Made by a program: the position numbers and the translations under genes. A DNA stretch of 25,505 bases from Candidatus Enterousia merdequi (GTDB lineage Bacteria; Pseudomonadota; Alphaproteobacteria; Rs-D84), in the NCBI GenBank assembly GCA_018065345.1, contig JAGHTM010000123.1:1-25505 (forward strand). The letters run 5' to 3'. The notes under the pieces were generated by a model. It saw only the letters and a program-made list of their open reading frames with translations. It did not search any database and was not told the origin of the DNA. Each line of letters begins with the position of its first letter. The first letter of the stretch is position 1. This document shows positions 279 through 25,505 of the stretch, piece by piece.

Positions 279-284
279 GAGCCA
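279..284 (+). mobile_element. att-like junction core GAGCCA (left end of module A)
   Basis: Same hexamer followed by a hairpin at the same spacing as at 5609, 11054 and 25331; overlaps the integrase remnant. Confidence 0.6.
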
Positions 285-292
285 CATTTTAC

Positions 293-329
293 AACCCTTC
301 GCAAAAAGCAGTTTGTCGAAGGGTTTTTT
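293..329 (+). terminator. Rho-independent terminator-like hairpin
   Basis: aacccttcg (293-301) pairs with cgaagggtt (317-325), inner caaa/tttg pairing, followed by a T run. Confidence 0.65.
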
Positions 330-454
330 CAAGTAAAAACAAGCACTTTTGTCTGTTAGTACACCAGCCATACGACTACATGGCAAATATAGTATTTCTG
401 CCTTGAAAAATCCGCTTTTATACCTATATAAACATCAATAATAAAGGTATAAAA

Positions 455-5531: not shown

Positions 5532-5614
5532 TTTAGAAAGATTTCGCAAACTCTACTCAGGCTAGTAAATTCTTCTGGATTTTCTACCCGATACGTGCGA
5601 GTTATCTCGAGCCA
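5532..5614. repeat. 83-bp direct repeat, copy 1 (right end of module A; encodes an integrase tail on the minus strand)
   Basis: 76/83 identical, without gaps, to 25254-25336. Ends in CGAGCCA. Minus strand reads WLEITRTYRVENPEEFTSLSRVCEIFLK. Confidence 0.92.
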
Positions 5615-9669: not shown

Positions 9670-10521
9670 ATGGCACAACAAACATATAAAATGCGGTTGT
9701 TTAAAATTATTGGCACAGAAGATGTTTATATCGACAATTTATTACGATCCGACAACATACAAGATAGTGAAACTTTAGGTTGTGGGTTTGATAATTTTCT
9801 TTTTGTAAGAAAAACTGTTTCTGATGACCATATTGAATTATACGTCGCTCGTTCTGATAAAAACGATATTGCAATTGTGCAAAATAACAATATAACAGAA
9901 CAAAAACTTGAAGAAGGCCAAACTGCGATACATCAAGGAATGTTTTGCATAATATACCATAATTATGTTTTACTTGTCACAGAAAAAAATATGCAAATAT
10001 ATTGGCTGAAACAATATCTAAAAATAAAATTTAATGCCGAATATAAAATAGAACCTGTTGTTGTTGATAATCTAGCAACACATATTAAAGACGTTTCAGG
10101 GATACAGTTTGCTGGATTACAGGATATCCAATCCGATGATGAAGCAGTAAATAATATATTAAAAAAGACCAAAGAATCTGCTTCAGCTGATCTATTTCAA
10201 AAATACGAAATGGGAATCGTCATTAGTCTTGTTCCAAAACGTTTTCCAAAAAAATTGGATTTACAGCGAAATGTGATGGAAAAACAACAAGAAATTGATA
10301 ACACAGTAAAAATATTTGTAGAAAATTGCGAATCTGATAATTTTTTAATCCGGTTAAAAAACGGCAAATACGTTAATAGCAACAAGTTTTATGTATCCGG
10401 AATATTCACAATGCCTAATGTGTTGAATTTAGAATTCAGAACTGATAAAATATTTACCATACTTAGGGAGTGGAAAAACAAACTAATAGCTGACAGGACC
10501 ATAAAAAATGATGTTAAATAG
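9670..10521 (+). CDS. Hypothetical soluble protein (283 aa)
   Basis: Long ORF with AAGGG upstream of the ATG; overlaps the next gene; no family recognised with confidence. Confidence 0.8.
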   Translation: MAQQTYKMRLFKIIGTEDVYIDNLLRSDNIQDSETLGCGFDNFLFVRKTVSDDHIELYVARSDKNDIAIVQNNNITEQKLEEGQTAIHQGMFCIIYHNYVLLVTEKNMQIYWLKQYLKIKFNAEYKIEPVVVDNLATHIKDVSGIQFAGLQDIQSDDEAVNNILKKTKESASADLFQKYEMGIVISLVPKRFPKKLDLQRNVMEKQQEIDNTVKIFVENCESDNFLIRLKNGKYVNSNKFYVSGIFTMPNVLNLEFRTDKIFTILREWKNKLIADRTIKNDVK

Positions 10522-10900
10522 TATACTATCTTTTTTCACCTGGTTTGCAAAATGGGATTCCAGCAATTACATAAGCTACAGTCTAACTTATGTGTCGATA
10601 GTAGTCGGAATTTTAATGGTTATCCTTGACAATTTAAGCAAAGATAAATCTGAACATAACACACGTGATTATAAAATTGTAGCTATTGCATTTAAAAAAC
10701 GAAAATTATGCAGAATTAAAACATTATTCTTTTTGTTGTTATCTCTGATTTTCTTGGCTTTGATTGGTGAGCTATGTAAACAAATTCACGTATTGTATGG
10801 GATAATAAATTTTATTTATATTGTTTTATCAATTTTTACTATTTACAAAACCCTAGCATTGCCACTTGATATTATCCGGGAAGTAAAAAAACAAATTTAA
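10508..10900 (+). CDS. Hypothetical membrane protein (about 3 transmembrane segments)
   Basis: Hydrophobic stretches LTYVSIVVGILMVIL, TLFFLLLSLIFLALIG and VLYGIINFIYIVLSIFTIY; overlaps the upstream ORF by 14 nt. Confidence 0.75.
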   Translation: MMLNSILSFFTWFAKWDSSNYISYSLTYVSIVVGILMVILDNLSKDKSEHNTRDYKIVAIAFKKRKLCRIKTLFFLLLSLIFLALIGELCKQIHVLYGIINFIYIVLSIFTIYKTLALPLDIIREVKKQI

Positions 10901-10947
10901 TATATAAAAAAAGATTCACTTTTTACCAAAAATACAGTATTCTTAAA

Positions 10948-10971
10948 AGTGAGATACAAAGTGGGATACAA
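10948..10971. repeat. Tandem 12-mer AGTG(A/G)GATACAA, possible integrase arm-type sites
   Basis: agtgagatacaa followed directly by agtgggatacaa, about 70 nt upstream of the tRNA 3' fragment. Confidence 0.5.
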
Positions 10972-11043
10972 ATTATACCAAAAAATCTCGGTTTTTCGGG
11001 AAAAAGGTTAGATTTCCAAGCATTTCAGAAAAGTGGCTTGGAA

Positions 11044-11059
11044 CCAGTTGCCCGAGCCA
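11044..11059 (+). mobile_element. Displaced tRNA 3'-end fragment (att site), probably from tRNA-Asn
   Basis: CCAGT-TGCCCGA-G-CCA has the 5+7+1+3 layout of T-stem 3' strand, acceptor strand, discriminator G and CCA. CCAGT is complementary to ACTGG in the fragment at 18761. Confidence 0.7.
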
Positions 11060-11066
11060 AAAATTA

Positions 11067-11099
11067 GCCGTAAATTCTTGAATTTACGGCATTTATTTT
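11067..11099 (+). terminator. Rho-independent terminator-like hairpin
   Basis: gccgtaaatt-cttg-aatttacggc (perfect 10-bp stem) followed by atttatttt. Confidence 0.75.
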
Positions 11100-11150
11100 A
11101 TCCACGCCTATGGCAATTTGTTCCGGTATAGCATCCTCAAAAACATTATT

Positions 11151-11235
11151 TTTTACACAAAATTACACATTTTTACACCATTTTGAAAATAATTTTACAT
11201 ATTTCTACACCACAAGGCCGATTTTTTACACCACA
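11151..11235. repeat. Cluster of TACAC(CA) direct repeats
   Basis: TACAC at 11154, 11164, 11174, 11206 and 11227. The 19-mer ttacatatttctacaccac (11195-11213) recurs exactly at 18658-18676. Confidence 0.7.
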
Positions 11236-11694
11236 AAATACGATTTTCAAGTATTTTCAATATATTATAAAAGTCAGAACAACGGACGGCTCGTCCGTGT
11301 GTCGCTTTACGCATTTTTCAATCAGCAATAAACCGCCTGCACATAGCGGATTTCTAATGTTTTTACAATATCCGAATACTTTTTGAAGTCAACTATAAAA
11401 TGATGTTTCTTTGTAACAAACAACTGGACGTTTATAGAAAGATATTGATGAATGCAACACCCCTAAAATGATTGTTGATGAAGTACAAACATTTTTGGGA
11501 AATTGAACCAAGTAATAAAATTGATTTTATCATGCTCTACTTCGCTTCATGCCGATCATTACACGAGTTAGAGAACGCCATACGCAGAACTAACAACGGC
11601 AACCCAACTGCCGGCAGACATGGTTGCTCCGCCGCATCCAGCACAAGTTATTCCAAATGGTTGCATTGTGGAAACATCGTTTCTAAACAAAATA

Positions 11695-12372
11695 CTAACA
11701 AGGCCTGTGAACACAAACTCTGTTCATATACTCGACAAGAACATCCACATTCGTTGTCGGACAATCTAAAAAACATTTTTGTTTAAGGTGCAAATGATAC
11801 ATTCTTAACTTTTTAGCGTTTTTTATCGCACATTTTTCTGATTCTGGCGAATTCACAATTACATCATAATCAATCGCCTTGTTGGTCTTGGGGTCATATT
11901 CAGGAAAATACCGCCTTGTTTTTCTCTCTATTTCTCTTTTATTTAGAACAGCAGTTGTGTATTCAAAATGCAAAACAGCCCATAATTCAAATTGCGGATT
12001 AGAAAAAACACAATTGACTTTATTTGGCTCGACTTTGTCTAAAGACGAACATTTCGACAATACGGTACATAATTGTCGTTTTTCTGTTCTATTAGCCAAT
12101 TTATTATCGTTATCAAGCACAATAAATACAACTGCATTAGGGTATTTAGCTTTGCTAGTCGTGGCAATAGCATACAATTGCTCCACTCCTGTTTTACTCA
12201 TAGCATTAGGAATTATTCTTATGTTCCTAGGTTCTCTAAAATGTCTAGCAACATATGCCCCAAAATATTCCGGCTCTGTTTTTTTACCCTCACAAACAAT
12301 TACAATCTTTACTTGTTGTGCTAAACGATTTTCAACGATATGCCTTTTAGGCAAAAAACGTCTCCCTGACAT
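11695..12372 (-). CDS. rloB: RloB-family protein (AbiLii-like)
   Basis: IVIVCEGKKTEPEYF, VFIVLDND, SNPQFELWAVLHFE and C-terminal TNVDVLVE. Confidence 0.85.
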   Translation of the reverse strand: MSGRRFLPKRHIVENRLAQQVKIVIVCEGKKTEPEYFGAYVARHFREPRNIRIIPNAMSKTGVEQLYAIATTSKAKYPNAVVFIVLDNDNKLANRTEKRQLCTVLSKCSSLDKVEPNKVNCVFSNPQFELWAVLHFEYTTAVLNKREIERKTRRYFPEYDPKTNKAIDYDVIVNSPESEKCAIKNAKKLRMYHLHLKQKCFLDCPTTNVDVLVEYMNRVCVHRPC

Positions 12373-12374
12373 AT

Positions 12375-13637
12375 CTATAACTCCCCAACCAATTTGGCTA
12401 AGCTGTCAATACCACCTAGATATGGTATCCCACCAAATCGACCTTCTAGATACCCTGTCTTATAATCATAATTACTTCTTACATCAGTAAATGTTGATAA
12501 AGGATATATAACCGAATTGGCCTTTTGTGGATCTTTTTCTATAAACCAAATTTCATCTCTTGTTAGTGTATCGGGAGACATTAACGATACATCGTGTGTT
12601 GTCGCCACAAGTTGTGCCCCACATTTATTGATGCGTCTATCATGGAACATTTCTACTATTTTTTTTATTATCAAAGGATGCAAACCTTTATCTAATTCAT
12701 CGGCAATATATACCCCCCCCCCTTTCAGAAACATTGGCAATATTTGTGTTAGTATTCGCAAATAATTTTCTGTCCCATCACTTTCTTCTCCGCCATTCAA
12801 TTTTTTATTCAAGCCCTTATGCTCAAACAACGGGAAATAAAATATATCTTCTGAAATATTTAAATTGTCCAAATTAGCATCTGTTATTTTTTTCATCAAC
12901 TCCAAACGCGCCTTATCGGGCATTTTTTCAATGCTAAAACCGGTAATTCCAACATCTGCATGTTTTAAAAATGATGACACCAAATCTTTTAATTCCGGAT
13001 CATCAAAAAGCTGTTTTATTAAGCCCTTACTTTTTTCTTTTGCTAAAAAGTTATAAGCATCAGAATAAGGCTCTATATTTCGCAAATTTAATATTTCCAG
13101 AATAGTTACATCTTTTCTAGTATTTAATCTTTCTTTTACTTCGTCTTTTATGCTTTTGCTTATCGAGATATTCTTATGCCAACTCACGTTAACGCCATCT
13201 CTTACAAATAAACGTTTTAACGAATTATTACTATTGAAAGTGCAAAATTCTTCAAACAATATCTCACTCTTGGAATATTTAACACAATACTCATATATTA
13301 TATCGTCTATAACAAACTCGAATTCGAAAGCTATAGGAGCAGAATTTTTATCAAAAGTGACACCTGGCATTTTTGTATCAACACTTGTATTTATCCTTTT
13401 TAACAATCTGGATATCACATTTATAATCTCCATAAAATTGCTTTTTCCAGAAGCATTCGCACCATACAATAGTGTTACAGGTAAAATATTTTCACTTTTT
13501 TTAGACCTCACTTCAATAAAATCAAAACGCGAATCTGAAGAATACTTTGTTTCCGCTGTAAAAAATATTTCTTGTGGTTCTTCGTTAAAAGAATAAAAGT
13601 TTTCGACCTTTATTCGTCTCAAATTTTTCAAAGCCAT
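12375..13637 (-). CDS. AAA_21/ABC-type ATPase (RloA/AbiLi-like)
   Basis: YGANASGKSN Walker A, ESDGT signature, YIADELDKGLHP Walker B, ATTHD, RDEIWFIEK and YLEGRFGGIP; 2 nt from the rloB start. Confidence 0.88.
   Translation of the reverse strand: MALKNLRRIKVENFYSFNEEPQEIFFTAETKYSSDSRFDFIEVRSKKSENILPVTLLYGANASGKSNFMEIINVISRLLKRINTSVDTKMPGVTFDKNSAPIAFEFEFVIDDIIYEYCVKYSKSEILFEEFCTFNSNNSLKRLFVRDGVNVSWHKNISISKSIKDEVKERLNTRKDVTILEILNLRNIEPYSDAYNFLAKEKSKGLIKQLFDDPELKDLVSSFLKHADVGITGFSIEKMPDKARLELMKKITDANLDNLNISEDIFYFPLFEHKGLNKKLNGGEESDGTENYLRILTQILPMFLKGGGVYIADELDKGLHPLIIKKIVEMFHDRRINKCGAQLVATTHDVSLMSPDTLTRDEIWFIEKDPQKANSVIYPLSTFTDVRSNYDYKTGYLEGRFGGIPYLGGIDSLAKLVGEL
12713..12722. repeat. C10 homopolymer (G10 on the coding strand) inside the ATPase gene
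   Basis: ta-cccccccccc-ttt, encoding K-G-G-G-V just before Walker B. Confidence 0.85.
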
Positions 13638-13779
13638 AATACATCCTTATGGTATATACGAGACCAATTATTACATAATTTTATAAAAAAGTCAAGAATT
13701 TTGTAATTTTTTTTCAAAAAAATACGTTTTTGGTGTTCACACAAAAAAAACATTAGTGCTTACCCCATTTCTCAACCTC

Positions 13780-16368
13780 TCATAAATCACCCAGCGCACA
13801 CCTTATCTGTTCGGAAACATTCAATCCACCAGCATTTTTACTGGCCATAACAAACACACCTTTGCCGTCTGATTGTTTCTGCCATAATTGCCCTATATTT
13901 TCTTTTTCTTTGGTATCGTCAGTACTTAAAAGATGCCCACCTTTATATTCAACAACCAATATTCTACCATCGTTCATCAGCGCAACAAAATCTGGATAAA
14001 AATAATCTGAGCTTGTTGGCAACCGGAAAGAATTTGGATGGCGAGCAACGTTGCGCACCCAATATGCCACATTCGGCAAACTATCTATTGCCTTTGCACA
14101 TTCTATTTCTTCTTCTGTATCCATAACTGGTATTTTGGTACTACCTAAAAAGTGTTTTTGGAATTTATAATTGCCATGATATGTTGGTAATCCATCATAC
14201 ATATGATCTTTGAATTCTACACCAAAATCGAAATCCAATTTTACACGTTCCGGGTGACCAAACATATATTGATTAAAGTTATCTTTACGAGCTTTTTGAC
14301 GTGCCGCATCAATTTTTGCCTTAATCTTATTCAACAATGCATATTTTGCCATCATAAGTTCAGCCATCGGCAAGTATCTTTCATTTTGCAATGATTCCAC
14401 CAGTTTACGCAACCATTCCACCATAATTGGTTGAGGTATATCATCTTGATGTAATCTTGAATCTAACCAATGTATCAAATTTGCAGCGGTCCAGCTTTCT
14501 ACCTCGATGGAATCCATTGTCAATTGTTCGTTGGATGCTGTGAAGGCGAGTTTGTTCCCGTCAATATCTATAACGTATCCTGTTCCCTGTTGTTCTATAG
14601 AAAATTCTGCTGGAGTTAATACCGGTTTCGTATACTCTTCTATATTCCAATCAGATTGTTCAAAAATAATATCTGGCTCTGCCAACACAAAACTGTCTTG
14701 TTCTGCAAATTGGATACATACAGTAGGAACTTTGAACTCTTTATTTTGAGTGGCAAATGATTGTTCTTTTTCTTCATGTTGAAAATTGTAAAACTTTGTT
14801 CTTACTTCATTCGCCTTAGTCGCTGTCATATTTTGACACAACAGTTCAACATCTTCCTGTTTCGTTTCATCTGTGAAGACAATTGTTTTATTATTATTTT
14901 CTAGTTTTATTGTTTGTGGAACAAACAGCCCATCCAATGGTTTGTCTAAATCAATCTTGTTTTGCTCTGGACGCCCAAACAATCCTGGAATTTCCACCGG
15001 CTTTTGTTGTATTGCACTCTGCGCCTCATTACTATCAAAACCACGTTTTTGCAACGCTTGCACCAATTCTTCTGCTGCCTGACCTGCGAAACCATCTTTC
15101 ATAACATATGCATATGCTTTATTTAATGCAGAGATTTTACGATTCTTAGCATACGGCATTCTCATTACACGCCCCAATAACTGGATTACCGCTGTATTAC
15201 TGCGAACATTTGCCAAAGAACACAAAACATAAGCAAAAGAACAATCCCATCCCTCTTTCAGTGCCTCAACGGTGATGATGTATTTTACCTTGCAATCTTT
15301 TGAAAACACATCTATCCCATCAAGCTCTTTTTGCTCTCCTGTTACGATAGCTATTTCCTCTTTTGGAATGTTCATAACATCTGTTAAATAATTATTCAAC
15401 GACTCAACGTTATGTTCGCCATTTTTGTCTTGTGCTTGAAAAAGAATAATTGGTCTGACATAATCTTTTTCATTTGCTGCCGCATCTTCTAATTCTTTGC
15501 GCTTAGCTATTGCCTCTGTTATTGCCTGTTCCCAATCTTCGTGTTCACGTAATTCTATAGGCAGTTTGATCATTTCTTCTTCTTTCAACTCTGCCGCACG
15601 AACATTGTATAAAGTGTTATTGTTTGTTTGCGGTGTTGCTGTCATTTCCACAATTGCCGCAGGATTCAAACGACCAAAAGTATCTTGGGTTAAGGCCGAT
15701 ATCTCATTATGTGCCTCATCAACGATCATTATCGGATGCAAATGATTTATTAAATTTGCAAAAGAAAACTTGAGTTGCCCCTTATCATCCAGCTCCATTG
15801 ATTGGGTAGCGTTTATCTTTGTGAAATGTGGTTCTAAATTTTCGTTGTGTGCATATACGTTATACTTTTCTGTTTTACTTTGTCTGAACGCTTGTATTGT
15901 GGTCACAACAATACATGCGCCGTTCTCAACATCAGCTGGTCTGATATTAAATTTTTCCTCTAAATCAAAAACCCTTATCTTGCCATTAAATTGCTCATCT
16001 AAAACTTTTCTATATGGATGACGAGGATTCTTTAATGCCTCTGACGTTTGTCTGCGGATAGAATCACTCGGCACTATCCATAATACAAAAGGATTTTCAG
16101 TTTCACACCAAGTGTCAGCGACAATCTTGATTGCGTGTGCGCCCACAATGGTTTTTCCACCACCTGTTGGTATTTTTATACACACTCTTGGTGTGTTTTT
16201 TATATTATCCCATACAACATAGTCAGACTTTAATGCACCTAAACGTGTAGCTATTTCAAAATCAGATGTTATGTTTGTAAAAGCTGCCTTTGGGCCAGCG
16301 ATACGACACTGTTCAAAAAATTTCTGTAACACATTAAGTGTTTGTATTTGATAGTTCTTTAGTTGCAT
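13780..16368 (-). CDS. res: Type III restriction endonuclease/helicase subunit Res
   Basis: QLKNYQ, IPTGGGKT, IVDEAH, MTATP, LKEGWD, QLLGRVMR and C-terminal FYPDF...VVEYKG; TAATG overlap with mod. Confidence 0.9.
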   Translation of the reverse strand: MQLKNYQIQTLNVLQKFFEQCRIAGPKAAFTNITSDFEIATRLGALKSDYVVWDNIKNTPRVCIKIPTGGGKTIVGAHAIKIVADTWCETENPFVLWIVPSDSIRRQTSEALKNPRHPYRKVLDEQFNGKIRVFDLEEKFNIRPADVENGACIVVTTIQAFRQSKTEKYNVYAHNENLEPHFTKINATQSMELDDKGQLKFSFANLINHLHPIMIVDEAHNEISALTQDTFGRLNPAAIVEMTATPQTNNNTLYNVRAAELKEEEMIKLPIELREHEDWEQAITEAIAKRKELEDAAANEKDYVRPIILFQAQDKNGEHNVESLNNYLTDVMNIPKEEIAIVTGEQKELDGIDVFSKDCKVKYIITVEALKEGWDCSFAYVLCSLANVRSNTAVIQLLGRVMRMPYAKNRKISALNKAYAYVMKDGFAGQAAEELVQALQKRGFDSNEAQSAIQQKPVEIPGLFGRPEQNKIDLDKPLDGLFVPQTIKLENNNKTIVFTDETKQEDVELLCQNMTATKANEVRTKFYNFQHEEKEQSFATQNKEFKVPTVCIQFAEQDSFVLAEPDIIFEQSDWNIEEYTKPVLTPAEFSIEQQGTGYVIDIDGNKLAFTASNEQLTMDSIEVESWTAANLIHWLDSRLHQDDIPQPIMVEWLRKLVESLQNERYLPMAELMMAKYALLNKIKAKIDAARQKARKDNFNQYMFGHPERVKLDFDFGVEFKDHMYDGLPTYHGNYKFQKHFLGSTKIPVMDTEEEIECAKAIDSLPNVAYWVRNVARHPNSFRLPTSSDYFYPDFVALMNDGRILVVEYKGGHLLSTDDTKEKENIGQLWQKQSDGKGVFVMASKNAGGLNVSEQIRCALGDL

Positions 16369-17897
16369 TATTTTACCTTTATGTCATAAGGTGTTTGTTT
16401 GAATTCTATGTTATTTTCACGCATACGTGTTGTTCCAAGACGTGATGCTTCGCCATAAACAATCAACTTGTCATACTCGACATTACCTAAGTCCGCTTTT
16501 ATAACATCTAACGTTTTACTGGTTAAAACATTTCCACCATCAACACGTTTATCACGCAAAATTCCGTTATATAGTAGCGCATAAGCTGTGCCTTTATAGA
16601 CACCTAATACTGTTGATTTTTGTTTTGGTTTATCAAACGGTGTCTTAGTTTCATAAAACCAAAGGTGAGCCGATAACTGTTCATACGTAATATTTGTTGT
16701 TACGTGTCCATCTTCATCAAATATTGCATCACCCAATTCGTAGAAACGAAAACCACCGCCACCTTGCCAATTTACAGCCTTAGAAATACCACCTTGTTCG
16801 CCATCAATAACCGCTTTTAATCTCGGTACACAATGGGTGGTTGCCTGATTTCCAAGTTCTATACCAATATATCTACGAACCATCTTATGTGCCACTGCTG
16901 CTGTTGTTCCGGATCCAAGAAATGAATCAAGAACAAGATCTCCGGGGTTTGATGCTAACGTAATAACTTTCTGTATAAGTCTTTCTGGTTTTGGTGTAGA
17001 GAACACATCATTTTGAAACAATGTTTTTATTTCTTTTTTTCCTTCTTGGTTGTCACCAACATCATCTCTTAACCATAAAGTCAACGGAACAATACCGTCT
17101 TTAACCTCTGATAAAAAACGCTTAATTCTAGGGACATTAGAGCCGTCTGGTCCAAAATATATACGATTATCTGCAACCATTTCATTAAATTTTTCCTTAC
17201 TAACACGCCAACAATATTCAGCTGGGGGTAAAATCTTTCTACCGCTTGGGGTTGTTATTTCATATACTCTGGATTTTGTTCTCGGTCCAGCTTGGATTGG
17301 TCCTGATGCCCAAGGACCTCTTGGATCATTATCTGGATTAGAAAATCTAGAATCCGCCTCCAATGTTCTTGGAAGTTGATTCATTTGAAACAATTCGTTA
17401 TTTTTACAATAAACCAATATATAATCAGTTGATCTAGAAAATGTTTTTTTCAGATTTATAGGCGCATAAGAACGTTGCCAAACCACCTCATCAACAAAGT
17501 TTTTTCTTCCAAACACTTCGTCACACAATATCTTTAAATAAGCATGTTCATCAGCATCTATAGAAATCCATATTGATCCACATTCACTCAACAAATCACG
17601 CAACAATTCCAAGCGTGGATACATCATTGATAACCATGTTGTGTGTTCTAGATTATCGTCATAGTGCTCAAATGCTGAACCTGTATTATAAGGCGGATCT
17701 ATATATATACACTTTATTTGACCTGCATAAAATGGCAATAAGGCTTTCAAGGCCTCTAAATTATCACCATGTATAATCATGTTGTCTGTGTCTTTATCAC
17801 CATAACTATACTTTGGATCTTCTTTTAACAACCGGTATTCTGCTTTTCCGGCTTTCTTTATATCTTCATCTCTGGTTAACCATTTCAATATCGGCAT
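16368..17897 (-). CDS. mod: Type III methyltransferase subunit Mod (probable m6A)
   Basis: IIHGDNLEALK, IYIDPPYNTG, TPKPERL and LDSFLGSGTTAAVAHKM. Start moved to the ATG at 17897 (MPILKW), which has AAGGA upstream. Confidence 0.92.
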   Translation of the reverse strand: MPILKWLTRDEDIKKAGKAEYRLLKEDPKYSYGDKDTDNMIIHGDNLEALKALLPFYAGQIKCIYIDPPYNTGSAFEHYDDNLEHTTWLSMMYPRLELLRDLLSECGSIWISIDADEHAYLKILCDEVFGRKNFVDEVVWQRSYAPINLKKTFSRSTDYILVYCKNNELFQMNQLPRTLEADSRFSNPDNDPRGPWASGPIQAGPRTKSRVYEITTPSGRKILPPAEYCWRVSKEKFNEMVADNRIYFGPDGSNVPRIKRFLSEVKDGIVPLTLWLRDDVGDNQEGKKEIKTLFQNDVFSTPKPERLIQKVITLASNPGDLVLDSFLGSGTTAAVAHKMVRRYIGIELGNQATTHCVPRLKAVIDGEQGGISKAVNWQGGGGFRFYELGDAIFDEDGHVTTNITYEQLSAHLWFYETKTPFDKPKQKSTVLGVYKGTAYALLYNGILRDKRVDGGNVLTSKTLDVIKADLGNVEYDKLIVYGEASRLGTTRMRENNIEFKQTPYDIKVK

Positions 17898-17962
17898 TTT
17901 TTTCTTTTCCTTTATGAAAAAGGTAGCCCAAAACAAAGGGTAAAGTCAAGAAGAACAATGAA

Positions 17963-17986
17963 AACACACACATTTCCGTGCGTGTT
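17963..17986 (-). terminator. Possible terminator after the 144-aa gene
   Basis: Minus strand aacacgcac-ggaaat-gtgtgtgtt followed by tt. Confidence 0.4.
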
Positions 17987-17995
17987 ACTAAAAAA

Positions 17996-18430
17996 CTATT
18001 GTAACTTGTCTTTTATTCCTAACTCTTTACGCATGTTTGTTGCTAATTTTACTATTTTATCTGCTATTTCATTTGATTTTTCCTCTATTTTTCTCTGGTC
18101 TTTCATTTTATCATAGCAATTCCATATCTCCGTATCCAATTTATAGTATTCATCATAAATTTTTTTGGAGGAATATATTAACATTTTTCCCTGCAATTCA
18201 TTAAACATCGTTTTGCACTTTTGCGGCCACTCGTGACTACGACGATATTTTTCATGTTCCATCAACACTTGACATACGGCGATATACAACTCTTCACGTT
18301 TTTGTTTTATATAAACTCCTCGACTACGTTTACTTTGCAGCCATTCCCAGAAACCAGTAAAACCACCTGTCAACAATGTACCGAGAATGATGCCAAATAA
18401 TTGAGATGAAAAAAAATCGGACCATGTCAT
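17996..18430 (-). CDS. Hypothetical protein with a single N-terminal membrane anchor and helical soluble part
   Basis: LFGIILGTLLTGGFTGFW followed by basic residues; GAGG upstream of the ATG. Confidence 0.75.
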   Translation of the reverse strand: MTWSDFFSSQLFGIILGTLLTGGFTGFWEWLQSKRSRGVYIKQKREELYIAVCQVLMEHEKYRRSHEWPQKCKTMFNELQGKMLIYSSKKIYDEYYKLDTEIWNCYDKMKDQRKIEEKSNEIADKIVKLATNMRKELGIKDKLQ

Positions 18431-18649
18431 TATTTACCTCTTTTGATATATTTATTTTGCTATCAAAATACTAGTATAAAACAGACGTTTTATCAACAGC
18501 TTTTAGTTTACAAAATCGCATCGAAATCGCCACGATTTCGTTTCTTATTTAAATATTCATTAGATTTCTCATATAAATTCTTATTTCAGAATTGATTTTT
18601 GTGTTAAAAAAACATTGATAAAAGGGTATTTAAATATGTTTTAGACCAA

Positions 18650-18750
18650 TTACAAAATTACATATTTCTACACCACTTTGTGTGACACCACACCAACTAC
18701 ACACAAAAAAGCGCTGATTTCTGCGGTGCACATAATGTTTTTACTACACG
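18650..18750. repeat. Second TACAC/ACACCAC repeat cluster next to the tRNA fragment
   Basis: Exact 19-mer shared with 11195-11213, plus gacaccacacca, actacacac and actacacg. Confidence 0.6.
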
Positions 18751-18760
18751 GGACAATTCG

Positions 18761-18786
18761 CTGTTAATCCGTATGTCACTGGTTCG
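18761..18786 (+). mobile_element. Internal tRNA-Asn(GTT) fragment (anticodon loop to T-loop), att remnant
   Basis: CTGTTAA-TCCGT-ATGTC-ACTGG-TTCG matches the layout and, from memory, the sequence of bacterial tRNA-Asn. The 5' anticodon-stem strand and the 3' end are missing, so it is not a functional tRNA. Confidence 0.8.
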
Positions 18787-18893
18787 GTGCAGAAAAACTA
18801 ACCACACATAATGAAGCCTTGTTCAGCGATGCCGGAAGAATACCTGTTCTTATAAACACACCATATATTGAAGAATAAAAAAATGGAGATTTT

Positions 18894-19406
18894 TTAAATC
18901 CCCAATTTTTTCAGTTTTTTATTCCAATCTTTTTGTTTTTCTTCAAATTTCATAGAAAGAGCCGCACTACTTGATTTTAATATTTTATCTTCGTCAACTT
19001 CTGGCCAATTTGCATATTTAGGATTTTTCTTTGCTTTTATGTAGTAATTATACGCTTTCTTACCATTAAAAAGTATATTCTTGCCATTTAATTTAAAAAG
19101 GTCGTTATAAACCTCGTTCTTTATATGTTTATCAGCGCTCGTATTTTTACCATTATCGTCTCTGTCGCAATATTTTATTACATCCCACAAACCGATACCT
19201 TTGTCTTTTAATGCTTCAAAATCGCCAAATTTTATTCCTAAAAGTTCCCAAAATTTGTTTGTGGGGTTTGAATAATATTTATTGCACTTTAATGATTCTT
19301 CGCCTGGAAATGTTCCCAATATTACAACTTTTGCAGCATCAATATTAAACGGTTTTATTTTATGACGAGACAAAATTGTTTTTTTCAACAAGGTTTTTAT
19401 ATTCAT
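18894..19406 (-). CDS. Uracil-DNA-glycosylase superfamily protein (MUG/hypoxanthine-DNA glycosylase-like)
   Basis: VILGTFPGEESL, YYSNPTNKFW, IGLWDVI, ILFNGKKA and LKSSSAA. Confidence 0.82.
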   Translation of the reverse strand: MNIKTLLKKTILSRHKIKPFNIDAAKVVILGTFPGEESLKCNKYYSNPTNKFWELLGIKFGDFEALKDKGIGLWDVIKYCDRDDNGKNTSADKHIKNEVYNDLFKLNGKNILFNGKKAYNYYIKAKKNPKYANWPEVDEDKILKSSSAALSMKFEEKQKDWNKKLKKLGI

Positions 19407-19409
19407 ATT

Positions 19410-19520
19410 TTATGCCTTTATAACTTTCTGTATCACTTCTAGCATTTGCCGGTCACAAAAATCAATAAAATTCTTACTGACTTCATCACCGTTATGTATT
19501 CCAAGATTATCATAACACAT
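19410..19520 (-). CDS. Small ORF or gene remnant (36 aa, not in the ORF track)
   Basis: MCYDNLGIHNGDEVSKNFIDFCDRQMLEVIQKVIKA; stops 3 nt before the glycosylase ATG. Confidence 0.3.
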   Translation of the reverse strand: MCYDNLGIHNGDEVSKNFIDFCDRQMLEVIQKVIKA

Positions 19521-25243: not shown

Positions 25244-25505
25244 TTACATATTCTTTAGAAAGATTTCGCATACTCTACCCAAACTAGTAAATTCTTCTGG
25301 ATTTTCTGCCCGATATGAGCGAGTTATCTCGAGCCAAGTTGGACATCCCTTGAAATTCACTATAGTTTCAAGGGATTTTTTTAGAGAAATCTGCACATTA
25401 CAGCCATCTATAAAAAAGTTAGAGGTCAGCATTTTTATTAGTACCCTTTTTTTATCAAAACCTCTAACTTTTAGCCTGTAATGGCTGTTTTCTGCCACTT
25501 TTATT
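25244..25505 (-). CDS. C-terminus of a large serine recombinase-like integrase (runs off the window edge)
   Basis: Frame open to the window end. KKRVLIKMLTSNFFIDGCNVQISLKKSLE...GCPTWL matches the C-terminal pattern of tRNA-targeting serine recombinases. The catalytic domain is not visible. Confidence 0.6.
   Translation of the reverse strand, partial: IKVAENSHYRLKVRGFDKKRVLIKMLTSNFFIDGCNVQISLKKSLETIVNFKGCPTWLEITRSYRAENPEEFTSLGRVCEIFLKNM
25254..25336. repeat. 83-bp direct repeat, copy 2 (element right end, att-like junction)
   Basis: 76/83 identical to 5532-5614; ends in CGAGCCA. Confidence 0.92.
25345..25382 (+). terminator. Rho-independent terminator-like hairpin
   Basis: atcccttgaaa-ttcactatag-tttcaagggat (11-bp stem) followed by a T run; encoded antisense inside the integrase end. 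Confidence 0.75.

Follow-up and report, generated by a model that had tools for sequence, protein, structure and literature searches.

Islands in tRNA genes that are accompanied by displaced 3′ tDNA fragments were reportedly described by Williams in 2002 in NAR 30:866, and for Streptococcus thermophilus Pavlovic in 2004 and Bellanger in 2011 are said to have described cis-mobilizable elements (CIMEs) and accretion at the attachment (att) sites of integrative and conjugative elements (ICEs). For tRNA islands, crossover classes in the anticodon loop and at the T-stem/acceptor junction as well as tandem arrays are established; three sublocations (anticodon loop, T loop, T/acceptor junction) are recognised by Islander, in which only 4 arrays of at least three members were found among 3919 islands and each member needs its own integrase (PMC4383910). 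The tycheposons of Prochlorococcus, a bacterium with a small genome, carry tyrosine or large serine recombinases and integrate at tRNA genes, newcomers push older elements deeper, nothing but partial tRNAs stands between neighbouring elements, and the islands contain scattered integrase fragments and additional partial tRNAs (bioRxiv 10.1101/2020.12.28.424599). In Klebsiella pneumoniae, according to one report (PMC4891358), asn tDNA are hotspots for several unrelated islands. Here, a stretch of 25,505 nt (in the following the window), which is the entire contig C67 (JAGHTM010000123.1) of a metagenome-assembled genome (MAG) of Candidatus Enterousia merdequi (GCA_018065345.1), was analysed with regard to two pieces of a tRNA-Asn gene that lie 7.7 kb apart and bracket an island with an AbiL defence pair and a type III restriction-modification (R-M) system.

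Comparisons with related genomes make it very probable that the two pieces are ordinary scars of two neighbouring islands stacked at one tRNA-Asn gene, and that each junction was trimmed by a separate later event. Candidatus Enterousia comprises uncultured gut and rumen Alphaproteobacteria with a genome of ~0.9 Mb; the MAG has 737 kb in 151 contigs and is 85% complete. Three comparison sets were used: 40 relatives for a search with the composite of both pieces, species-representative genomes for a scan with the corresponding 45-mer, and 257 genus genomes for BLAST searches with flanks and scars. The source genome itself (G000) was set aside when junctions were counted in the latter set. Genomes, contigs and loci are given below with G, C and L numbers.

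The right-hand piece (CTGTTAATCCGTATGTCACTGGTTCG, here the 26-mer) and the left-hand piece (CCAGTTGCCCGAGCCA, here the 16-mer) were read from the plus strand at 18761-18786 and 11044-11059, where a first-pass annotation made from the sequence alone had located them, and each is present as a single copy in the 737-kb assembly. On the basis of the base composition of the window, the number of copies expected by chance is 4e-12 for the 26-mer and 4.5e-7 for the 16-mer; for the bare motifs CGAGCCA and GAGCCA the expectations are 0.6 and 3.9, which is not significant alone, and sites with these motifs were counted as real because of their flanks only. The annotation had derived both pieces from tRNA-Asn and had predicted that the host gene contains them in one composite with a 3-nt gap and begins with TCGGG(C/T)(A/G). 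This composite was found with zero mismatches and with AGT in the gap in 8 of the 40 relatives, six of which have a full gene that ARAGORN assigned to tRNA-Asn(gtt) and that starts with TCGGGCA (for example L004:1370-1445:+), in agreement with the predicted sequence, origin and gene start. In the species-representative genomes, 81 exact 45-mers were detected in 80 loci, namely 58 in full genes, 22 in fragments without the 5′ half and 1 cut by the locus end. Identity of the fragments to the tRNA begins at positions 26-32, most often at 32. It follows from these counts that tRNA-Asn integration scars are common in the genus and that the 26-mer begins at the usual place. The 45-nt scar (positions 32-76) is the signature of a tyrosine integrase with its crossover in the anticodon loop.

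The tRNA scan that had been suggested along with the prediction detected the gene in congeners; in the window ARAGORN reported zero tRNAs and in the entire MAG zero tRNA-Asn, and Rfam gave no match on the window at E<=0.1. Both the 5′ half of tRNA-Asn and the FabI-like gene that is its conserved upstream neighbour, found beside tRNA-Asn in loci of 40 relatives, were searched in the MAG and not found, from which it was concluded that the native tRNA-Asn locus is unassembled. Measured against the Islander definition, the island between the pieces has no regenerated intact tDNA at one end, the left end having kept only positions 61-76, and in its canonical relatives a full tRNA-Asn gene is present there. 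A displaced tDNA fragment in direct orientation is found at the other end in the form of the 26-mer, which is on the same strand as the 16-mer and ends at position 57 instead of 76. Both crossovers fall in recognised sublocations, with identity to the tRNA starting from C32 in the 26-mer and from C61 in the 16-mer.

At the right junction, the intact states in relatives identify the 26-mer as the front of a normal 45-nt scar that was cut by a lineage-specific deletion. The undamaged order is seen in G173, where the right arm is followed by a full 45-nt scar (L050:10872-10916), a C-terminal remnant of a serine recombinase and an intact FtsK-like gene. The alignment with the window stops at L050:10897 and starts again at L050:11850, and the ~952 nt in between (L050:10898-11849) are missing from the window. 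Intact FtsK-like genes of 249-255 aa are present in G185 (L046:6075-6824:-) and G173 (L050) and match Pfam FtsK_SpoIIIE with 7e-27. G185 is 99% identical to window 18785-19444 and continues upstream of 18785 with the intact rest of the FtsK-like gene, and contigs of three other, unrelated gut metagenomes share sequence with the window only from 18785 on towards the right and read at their loose ends into the intact gene. The junction between the 26-mer and the FtsK-like gene was crossed by no BLAST match from the 257 genus genomes, the match of G165 extending one base past it. The partners at the breakpoint have only CG in common, and local alignment against shuffles revealed no residual similarity of the flank to the tRNA (p=0.84). 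Other truncated scars of the same island family end near positions 48, 49 and 51 in G241:C18, G185 and G087, and truncated scars are common in this family. As an observation in its own right, the segment of a UDG-family gene at 18785-19444 is 99% identical to G185:C9:35508-36167 from another species, whereas neighbouring homologous stretches are 84-88% identical, which points to a recent exchange of the segment.

At the left junction, the 16-mer forms a 117-nt module (10943-11059) together with the arm that precedes it. The module has 97% identity in G045:C22:35111-35227 and recurs in G241:C12; the post-tRNA flank that follows it is different in all three genomes, and the left flanks diverge too. 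A scar beginning exactly at C61 was found in just 3 genomes among the 257 of the genus, and all three have the same arm before it; the similarity of this arm to tRNA positions 1-60 is not significant (p=0.9, local alignment against shuffles). Because the flanks of both pieces are without residual tRNA similarity, their boundaries at 60/61 and 57/58 were taken as sharp junctions made by different events, and gradual decay was rejected as the cause of the truncations on the same ground. An island of 20.7 kb in G045 and one of 14.3 kb in G241 have the module as their right end. Directly after the 45-nt scar at their left end, these islands encode a 566-aa protein with a PF00589 (Phage_integrase) domain, an unusually long tyrosine recombinase, which is encoded at L181:353-2053:+ (G045:C22) and at L047:1564-3261 (G241:C12). 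In G045 it heads a stretch (L181:353-5371) that continues with a DUF5906 helicase and a Rep-like gene. Its identity of 96% between the two species suggests a recent transfer. The simplest reading is that the module with the 16-mer represents the right-end scar of this element family and that the crossover took place at the T-stem/acceptor junction. The island order in G241 is opposite to that in the window, so the insertions of the two island types were independent. No trace of the 566-aa integrase or of a remnant was found in the MAG.

Two features beside this junction were recorded separately. Just left of the 117-nt module, at 9670-10900, lie two overlapping genes of 283 and 130 aa for which Pfam, NCBIfam and PADLOC gave no match. 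In the arm before the 16-mer, a TCGGGAA is able to pair with the acceptor 3′ strand; this pairing and an imperfect T-arm-like hairpin (AGTGG/CCAGT) give a predicted 64-nt fold at 10996-11059 with -20 kcal/mol, and the fold could be a tRNA mimic or due to chance.

The first-pass annotation had explained the two pieces as halves of one T-arm that was split and placed in reversed order. The comparisons speak for another origin, as each piece is the remnant of a separate, once longer copy, and a 3′ piece followed by an anticodon piece is the normal succession from the left end to the right end of an integrated element. A split T-arm fails because the outer flanks of both pieces, a portable arm on one side and a gene interior on the other, are contiguous in none of the flank matches among the 257 genus genomes. 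The perfect pairing of ACTGG with CCAGT, which had been taken as its sign, is true and trivial, since both pieces copy the same T-arm. What holds of the idea that one site is rebuilt is that the pieces bracket one island and that joining them recreates the attachment site of the island family; G185:C9 carries an uninterrupted 45-nt scar bordered by the same right flank.

The sequence from 11060 to 18760 belongs to a widespread family of islands without an integrase, and the canonical ends of this family extend further than those in the window. The family layout consists of a full tRNA-Asn or 45-nt scar, a left arm (F flank), the small gene p75, variable cargo, the gene u144, a right arm and a 45-nt scar; members with canonical ends measure 5-11 kb and occur in G241, G160, G173, G091, G087 and G235. 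The F flank is 84-89% identical to DNA directly downstream of tRNA-Asn or 45-nt scars in G009, G241, G160, G091, G087 and G185, and the right arm (P4 arm) is 67-85% identical to arms preceding 45-nt scars in G241, G173, G235, G087 and G195. In an alignment of 19 copies, p75 varies at third codon positions, and in the relatives its frame is intact with 69-73 aa. The gene was found in 54 fetched loci adjoining tRNA-Asn or a scar, in most of them 0.3-0.7 kb downstream (for example L052:3396-3617), and DNA matching the p75 region is present in many of the 98 out of 257 genus genomes that matched the query region. The u144 protein has 68-81% aa identity to proteins encoded at the matching position in G241, G160, G173, G091 and G200. 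Neither family had a match in Pfam, NCBIfam, PADLOC or the ESM Atlas.

No PF00589 or resolvase match was obtained within 11060-18760, in which the island departs from the Islander definition with its integrase inside, and no tyrosine or serine recombinase was found inside any of the related islands examined. A cognate integrase was sought by tblastn of six tyrosine-integrase types and a serine recombinase against all fetched loci, with no match inside such islands, and the arm repeats beside neighbouring integrase genes differ from the island's own repeats. With flanking att sites, conserved arms, a shared arm repeat, variable cargo and no recombinase, the island corresponds to the description of a CIME-like element. 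A fixed integrase upstream of the tRNA, as in integrons, was rejected as a general feature, since 51 of 57 evaluable full genes are without one; in the remaining 6 of 57 a divergent integrase lies ~0.4-0.5 kb upstream of tRNA-Asn. The features of the window are compiled in Table 1.

Table 1. Positions of tRNA-derived pieces, arms, genes and recombinase remnants in the window.
Position	Strand	Feature	Basis
279..430	-	GAGCCA core (279-284), then ~49-codon remnant of another serine-recombinase C-terminus	tblastn in relatives
5532..5614	+	83-nt repeat that terminates with CGAGCCA; read on the minus strand, large serine recombinase C-terminal tail (orphan), then att core	92% identical to 25254-25336
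10943..11043	+	P3 arm of left-hand element family; with the 16-mer, 117-nt module	conserved in G045, G241
11044..11059	+	tRNA-Asn positions 61-76 (3′ strands of T-stem and acceptor, G73, CCA); right-end scar of the island on its left and what remains of the 7.7-kb island's left junction	exact match to congener gene
11060..11420	+	left arm (F flank) with terminator hairpin ~11068-11090 and arm-type repeats 11163-11181 and 11195-11213	similarity, repeats
11475..11700	+	p75, small conserved gene, frameshifted by missing base near 11606	19-copy alignment
11695..13637	-	defence pair AbiLii (11695-12372) and AbiLi (12375-13637)	Pfam RloB, AAA_21; PADLOC AbiLii 2e-23, AbiLi 2e-74
13780..17936	-	type III R-M: Res (13780-16368), Mod (16368-17936)	REase_III 3e-169, MTase_III 2e-189
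17996..18430	-	u144, conserved 144-aa gene near right end	conserved position in relatives
18431..18760	+	right arm (P4 arm) with arm repeat 18658-18676 identical to 11195-11213	repeat search, similarity
18761..18786	+	tRNA-Asn positions 32-57, front 26 nt of 45-nt anticodon-loop scar, 3′ side truncated	exact match; relatives' scars
18786..18878	+	last 30 codons and stop of FtsK/SpoIIIE-like gene, replacing tRNA positions 58-76	translation match to intact gene
25254..25505	-	large serine recombinase C-terminus, off contig end; last 27 codons are the second 83-nt repeat, core 25330-25336	tblastn to L012:3-1484:+

The homologies and junctions, together with the intact arrangements seen in relatives, lead us to infer the following course of events and the recombinases involved. 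Islands would have been inserted serially in a single tRNA-Asn gene located off the left end of the contig, each insertion shifting older islands to the right and leaving a tRNA-derived scar at the right end of the newcomer. The 7.7-kb island would originally have been situated between a full tRNA-Asn and a 45-nt scar. An element of the 566-aa-integrase family may then have entered the tRNA copy left of this island by a crossover at the T-stem/acceptor junction, with only positions 61-76 kept. At the other end, a deletion of ~0.95 kb would have taken positions 58-76 of the right scar, the serine-recombinase remnant and the first ~220 codons of the FtsK-like gene. With both att sites broken and a frameshift in p75, the cargo of AbiL and type III R-M would be fixed in place as a consequence.

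Several points weigh against this course of events. We infer the order of insertion, since the assembly includes neither the intact tRNA-Asn nor the left end of the array. The breakpoints are just 3 nt apart, which under a model of independent events is a matter of chance, roughly estimated at ~15% for an endpoint anywhere in the 45-nt scar; the spacing is best treated as such. Neither junction was checked against reads, as the run of the source sample was not found: in the run search no run had >36% of the sampled words, and four sequencing runs that were compared with the window contain relatives without the window's junction. No cognate integrase of the 7.7-kb island family was identified by the tblastn search described above. 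Finally, the left-hand island of the window has only the 117-nt end in common with the integrase-bearing relatives, and this end is the basis of its putative family assignment.

The pieces are complementary halves with just 3 nt missing, and in G185 the contiguous 45-nt scar is followed by the same right flank; both would suit a single break, in which an island circle with an intact 45-nt site opened within the T-loop and then entered a secondary site, with the T-arm halves reversed. However, the left flank of the 16-mer is the portable module known from G045 and G241 and not the other half of the FtsK-like gene, relatives have upstream of the right junction the rest of that gene and not the module, and no flank match among the 257 genus genomes shows both flanks joined as an empty site, and a single break is regarded as very improbable. 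Integrases can use secondary sites, and the breakpoint of G185 (CCCGGTGCAG) resembles tRNA positions 55-64 (TCGAGTCCAG) with one gap. Accordingly, two events by one enzyme were considered, a T-arm-directed integrase of the 566-aa type being responsible for the left junction and for an aberrant recombination at the look-alike in the FtsK-like gene, which would give the closeness of the breakpoints a mechanistic cause. This explanation is improbable in view of the different breakpoints (57/58 versus 60/61), a gapped and not significant similarity (p=0.84) with only CG common at the junction, the lack of such an integrase or remnant in the MAG, and the truncation of other scars of the island family at other positions.

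A further possibility, to which we assign a small probability, is that the tRNA-Asn scars are live sites and that the p75 islands are cassettes moved in trans via the 45-, 16- and 7-nt sites. Helper recombinases would in this case come from the array or from incoming elements, the tRNA 3′ end would serve as a platform for the exchange of defence cassettes that is broadly integron-like, and the island of the window would be a cassette that was locked once both sites were trimmed. Chimeric joins in a short-read metagenome assembly could have produced one or both junctions, given a MAG fragmented into 151 contigs, a repeat-rich region and source-sample reads that were not found. This is most improbable, since the left junction was reproduced in two independent assemblies and the partners at the right junction, in unique sequence, have 2 nt in common, too few for a de Bruijn mis-join. 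Circularly permuted tRNA genes have the 3′ part upstream of the anticodon part, and the same succession is seen in the window. That the pieces belong to a functional permuted or split tRNA-Asn, with halves transcribed apart and then joined, nevertheless has a practically negligible probability: of the segments that such a gene should have in full, positions 1-31 and 58-60 are lacking in both the window and the assembly, the pieces are 7.7 kb apart, the tRNA-Asn genes of congeners are ordinary and contiguous, and Rfam had no match. Two independently trimmed scars of neighbouring islands are consequently preferred.

The stacking extends over the whole contig. In 25 kb at least five tRNA-Asn-derived scars are present (the cores at 279, 5608 and 25330, the 16-mer and the 26-mer), and the scars between the islands are of three kinds with 7, 16 and 45 nt. 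The cargo of the islands comprises a KAP NTPase with McrBC, a module of Hsp70-like, APH-like, GreA-like and CYTH-domain genes, AbiL with type III R-M, and a module of UDG, FtsK, tandem-AAA and WYL genes. The first-pass annotation had traced the CGAGCCA cores at 5608 and 25330 to the same tRNA; they are indeed scars of its 3′ end and belong to a third recombinase class, as both cores appear to be sites of large serine recombinases. The reverse frame of the repeat at 5532-5614 continues the recombinase frame at 25337-25504, and the repeat at 25254-25336 runs in frame into the recombinase body there. A domain-complete recombinase adjoining such an att core is present in G017 (L012:3-1484:+), to which 25337-25504 is homologous as C-terminus. 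This protein of 493 aa has Resolvase, Recombinase and Zn ribbon domains, and its gene converges on tRNA-Asn in such a way that the antisense of the tRNA-Asn 3′ end makes up the last nine codons. Window 279-430 is 94-95% identical to DNA after 45-nt scars in G014 and G173, where tblastn detected a recombinase C-terminus.

Large serine recombinase genes that converge on tRNA 3′ ends, with the att core in their last codons and the Trp codon TGG as antisense of CCA, were observed at tRNA-Asn in relatives and at tRNA-Gln in the MAG, where the homologue on contig C143 (C143:7792-9302) ends inside the tRNA gene. The window segments concerned are 194-430, 5532-5614 and 25254-25505. The position of the core within the last codons implies that integration swaps the C-terminal tail and that the original tail stays at the far end of the element. 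Two repeat regions were noted in addition. At the contig start (1-190) the sequence is G-rich with loosely repeated GGGATATGGGG-like units, the rest of the window being AT-rich. At 2123-2172, in the interval from the KAP NTPase gene to the McrB gene, there are four tandem 12-nt units (ATTTCAnnAnTG) in a place taken in relatives by the tRNA-Asn 3′ end and the start of the flank with the recombinase remnant; it is a scar overwritten by slippage repeats. The contig is not circular, as its ends neither overlap each other nor connect to other contigs.

Serial integration at tDNA with partial-tRNA scars is a well established phenomenon. To this the window adds a stack at one tRNA gene that uses at least three recombinase or crossover classes, and the definition of a widespread family of integrase-less islands, the p75 islands. 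A gut alphaproteobacterium with a genome of ~0.9 Mb would gather defence systems such as AbiL and type III R-M at one tRNA gene and then fix them. An unassembled tRNA gene was correctly predicted from the raw sequence without tools, and the two pieces illustrate that complementary fragments need not stem from one break.

Compared with the known systems, the locus resembles the islands of the Islander type in the direct 3′ tRNA repeats at the ends, in both crossover classes and in the stacking at one tDNA (PMC4383910), and it differs in that most islands are without their own integrase, both studied scars are truncated and at least five scars lie within 25 kb. Like CIMEs, the islands are flanked by att sites, lack recombination genes and stand in tandem with integrase-bearing relatives; unlike them, no conjugation genes were seen here and both att sites of the window's island are damaged, and because of this damage the island would no longer be a recombination substrate. 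As in the Klebsiella hotspots (PMC4891358), tRNA-Asn genes are integration targets for unrelated islands, whereas several asn tDNA copies each carry an island with a P4-like integrase there and the islands are piled on one copy here. In layout, the stacking, the partial-tRNA scars and the integrase remnants of the contig are closely similar to those of tycheposons, with the difference that the host is a gut alphaproteobacterium from another phylum and habitat and that the cargo serves anti-phage defence instead of nutrient uptake.

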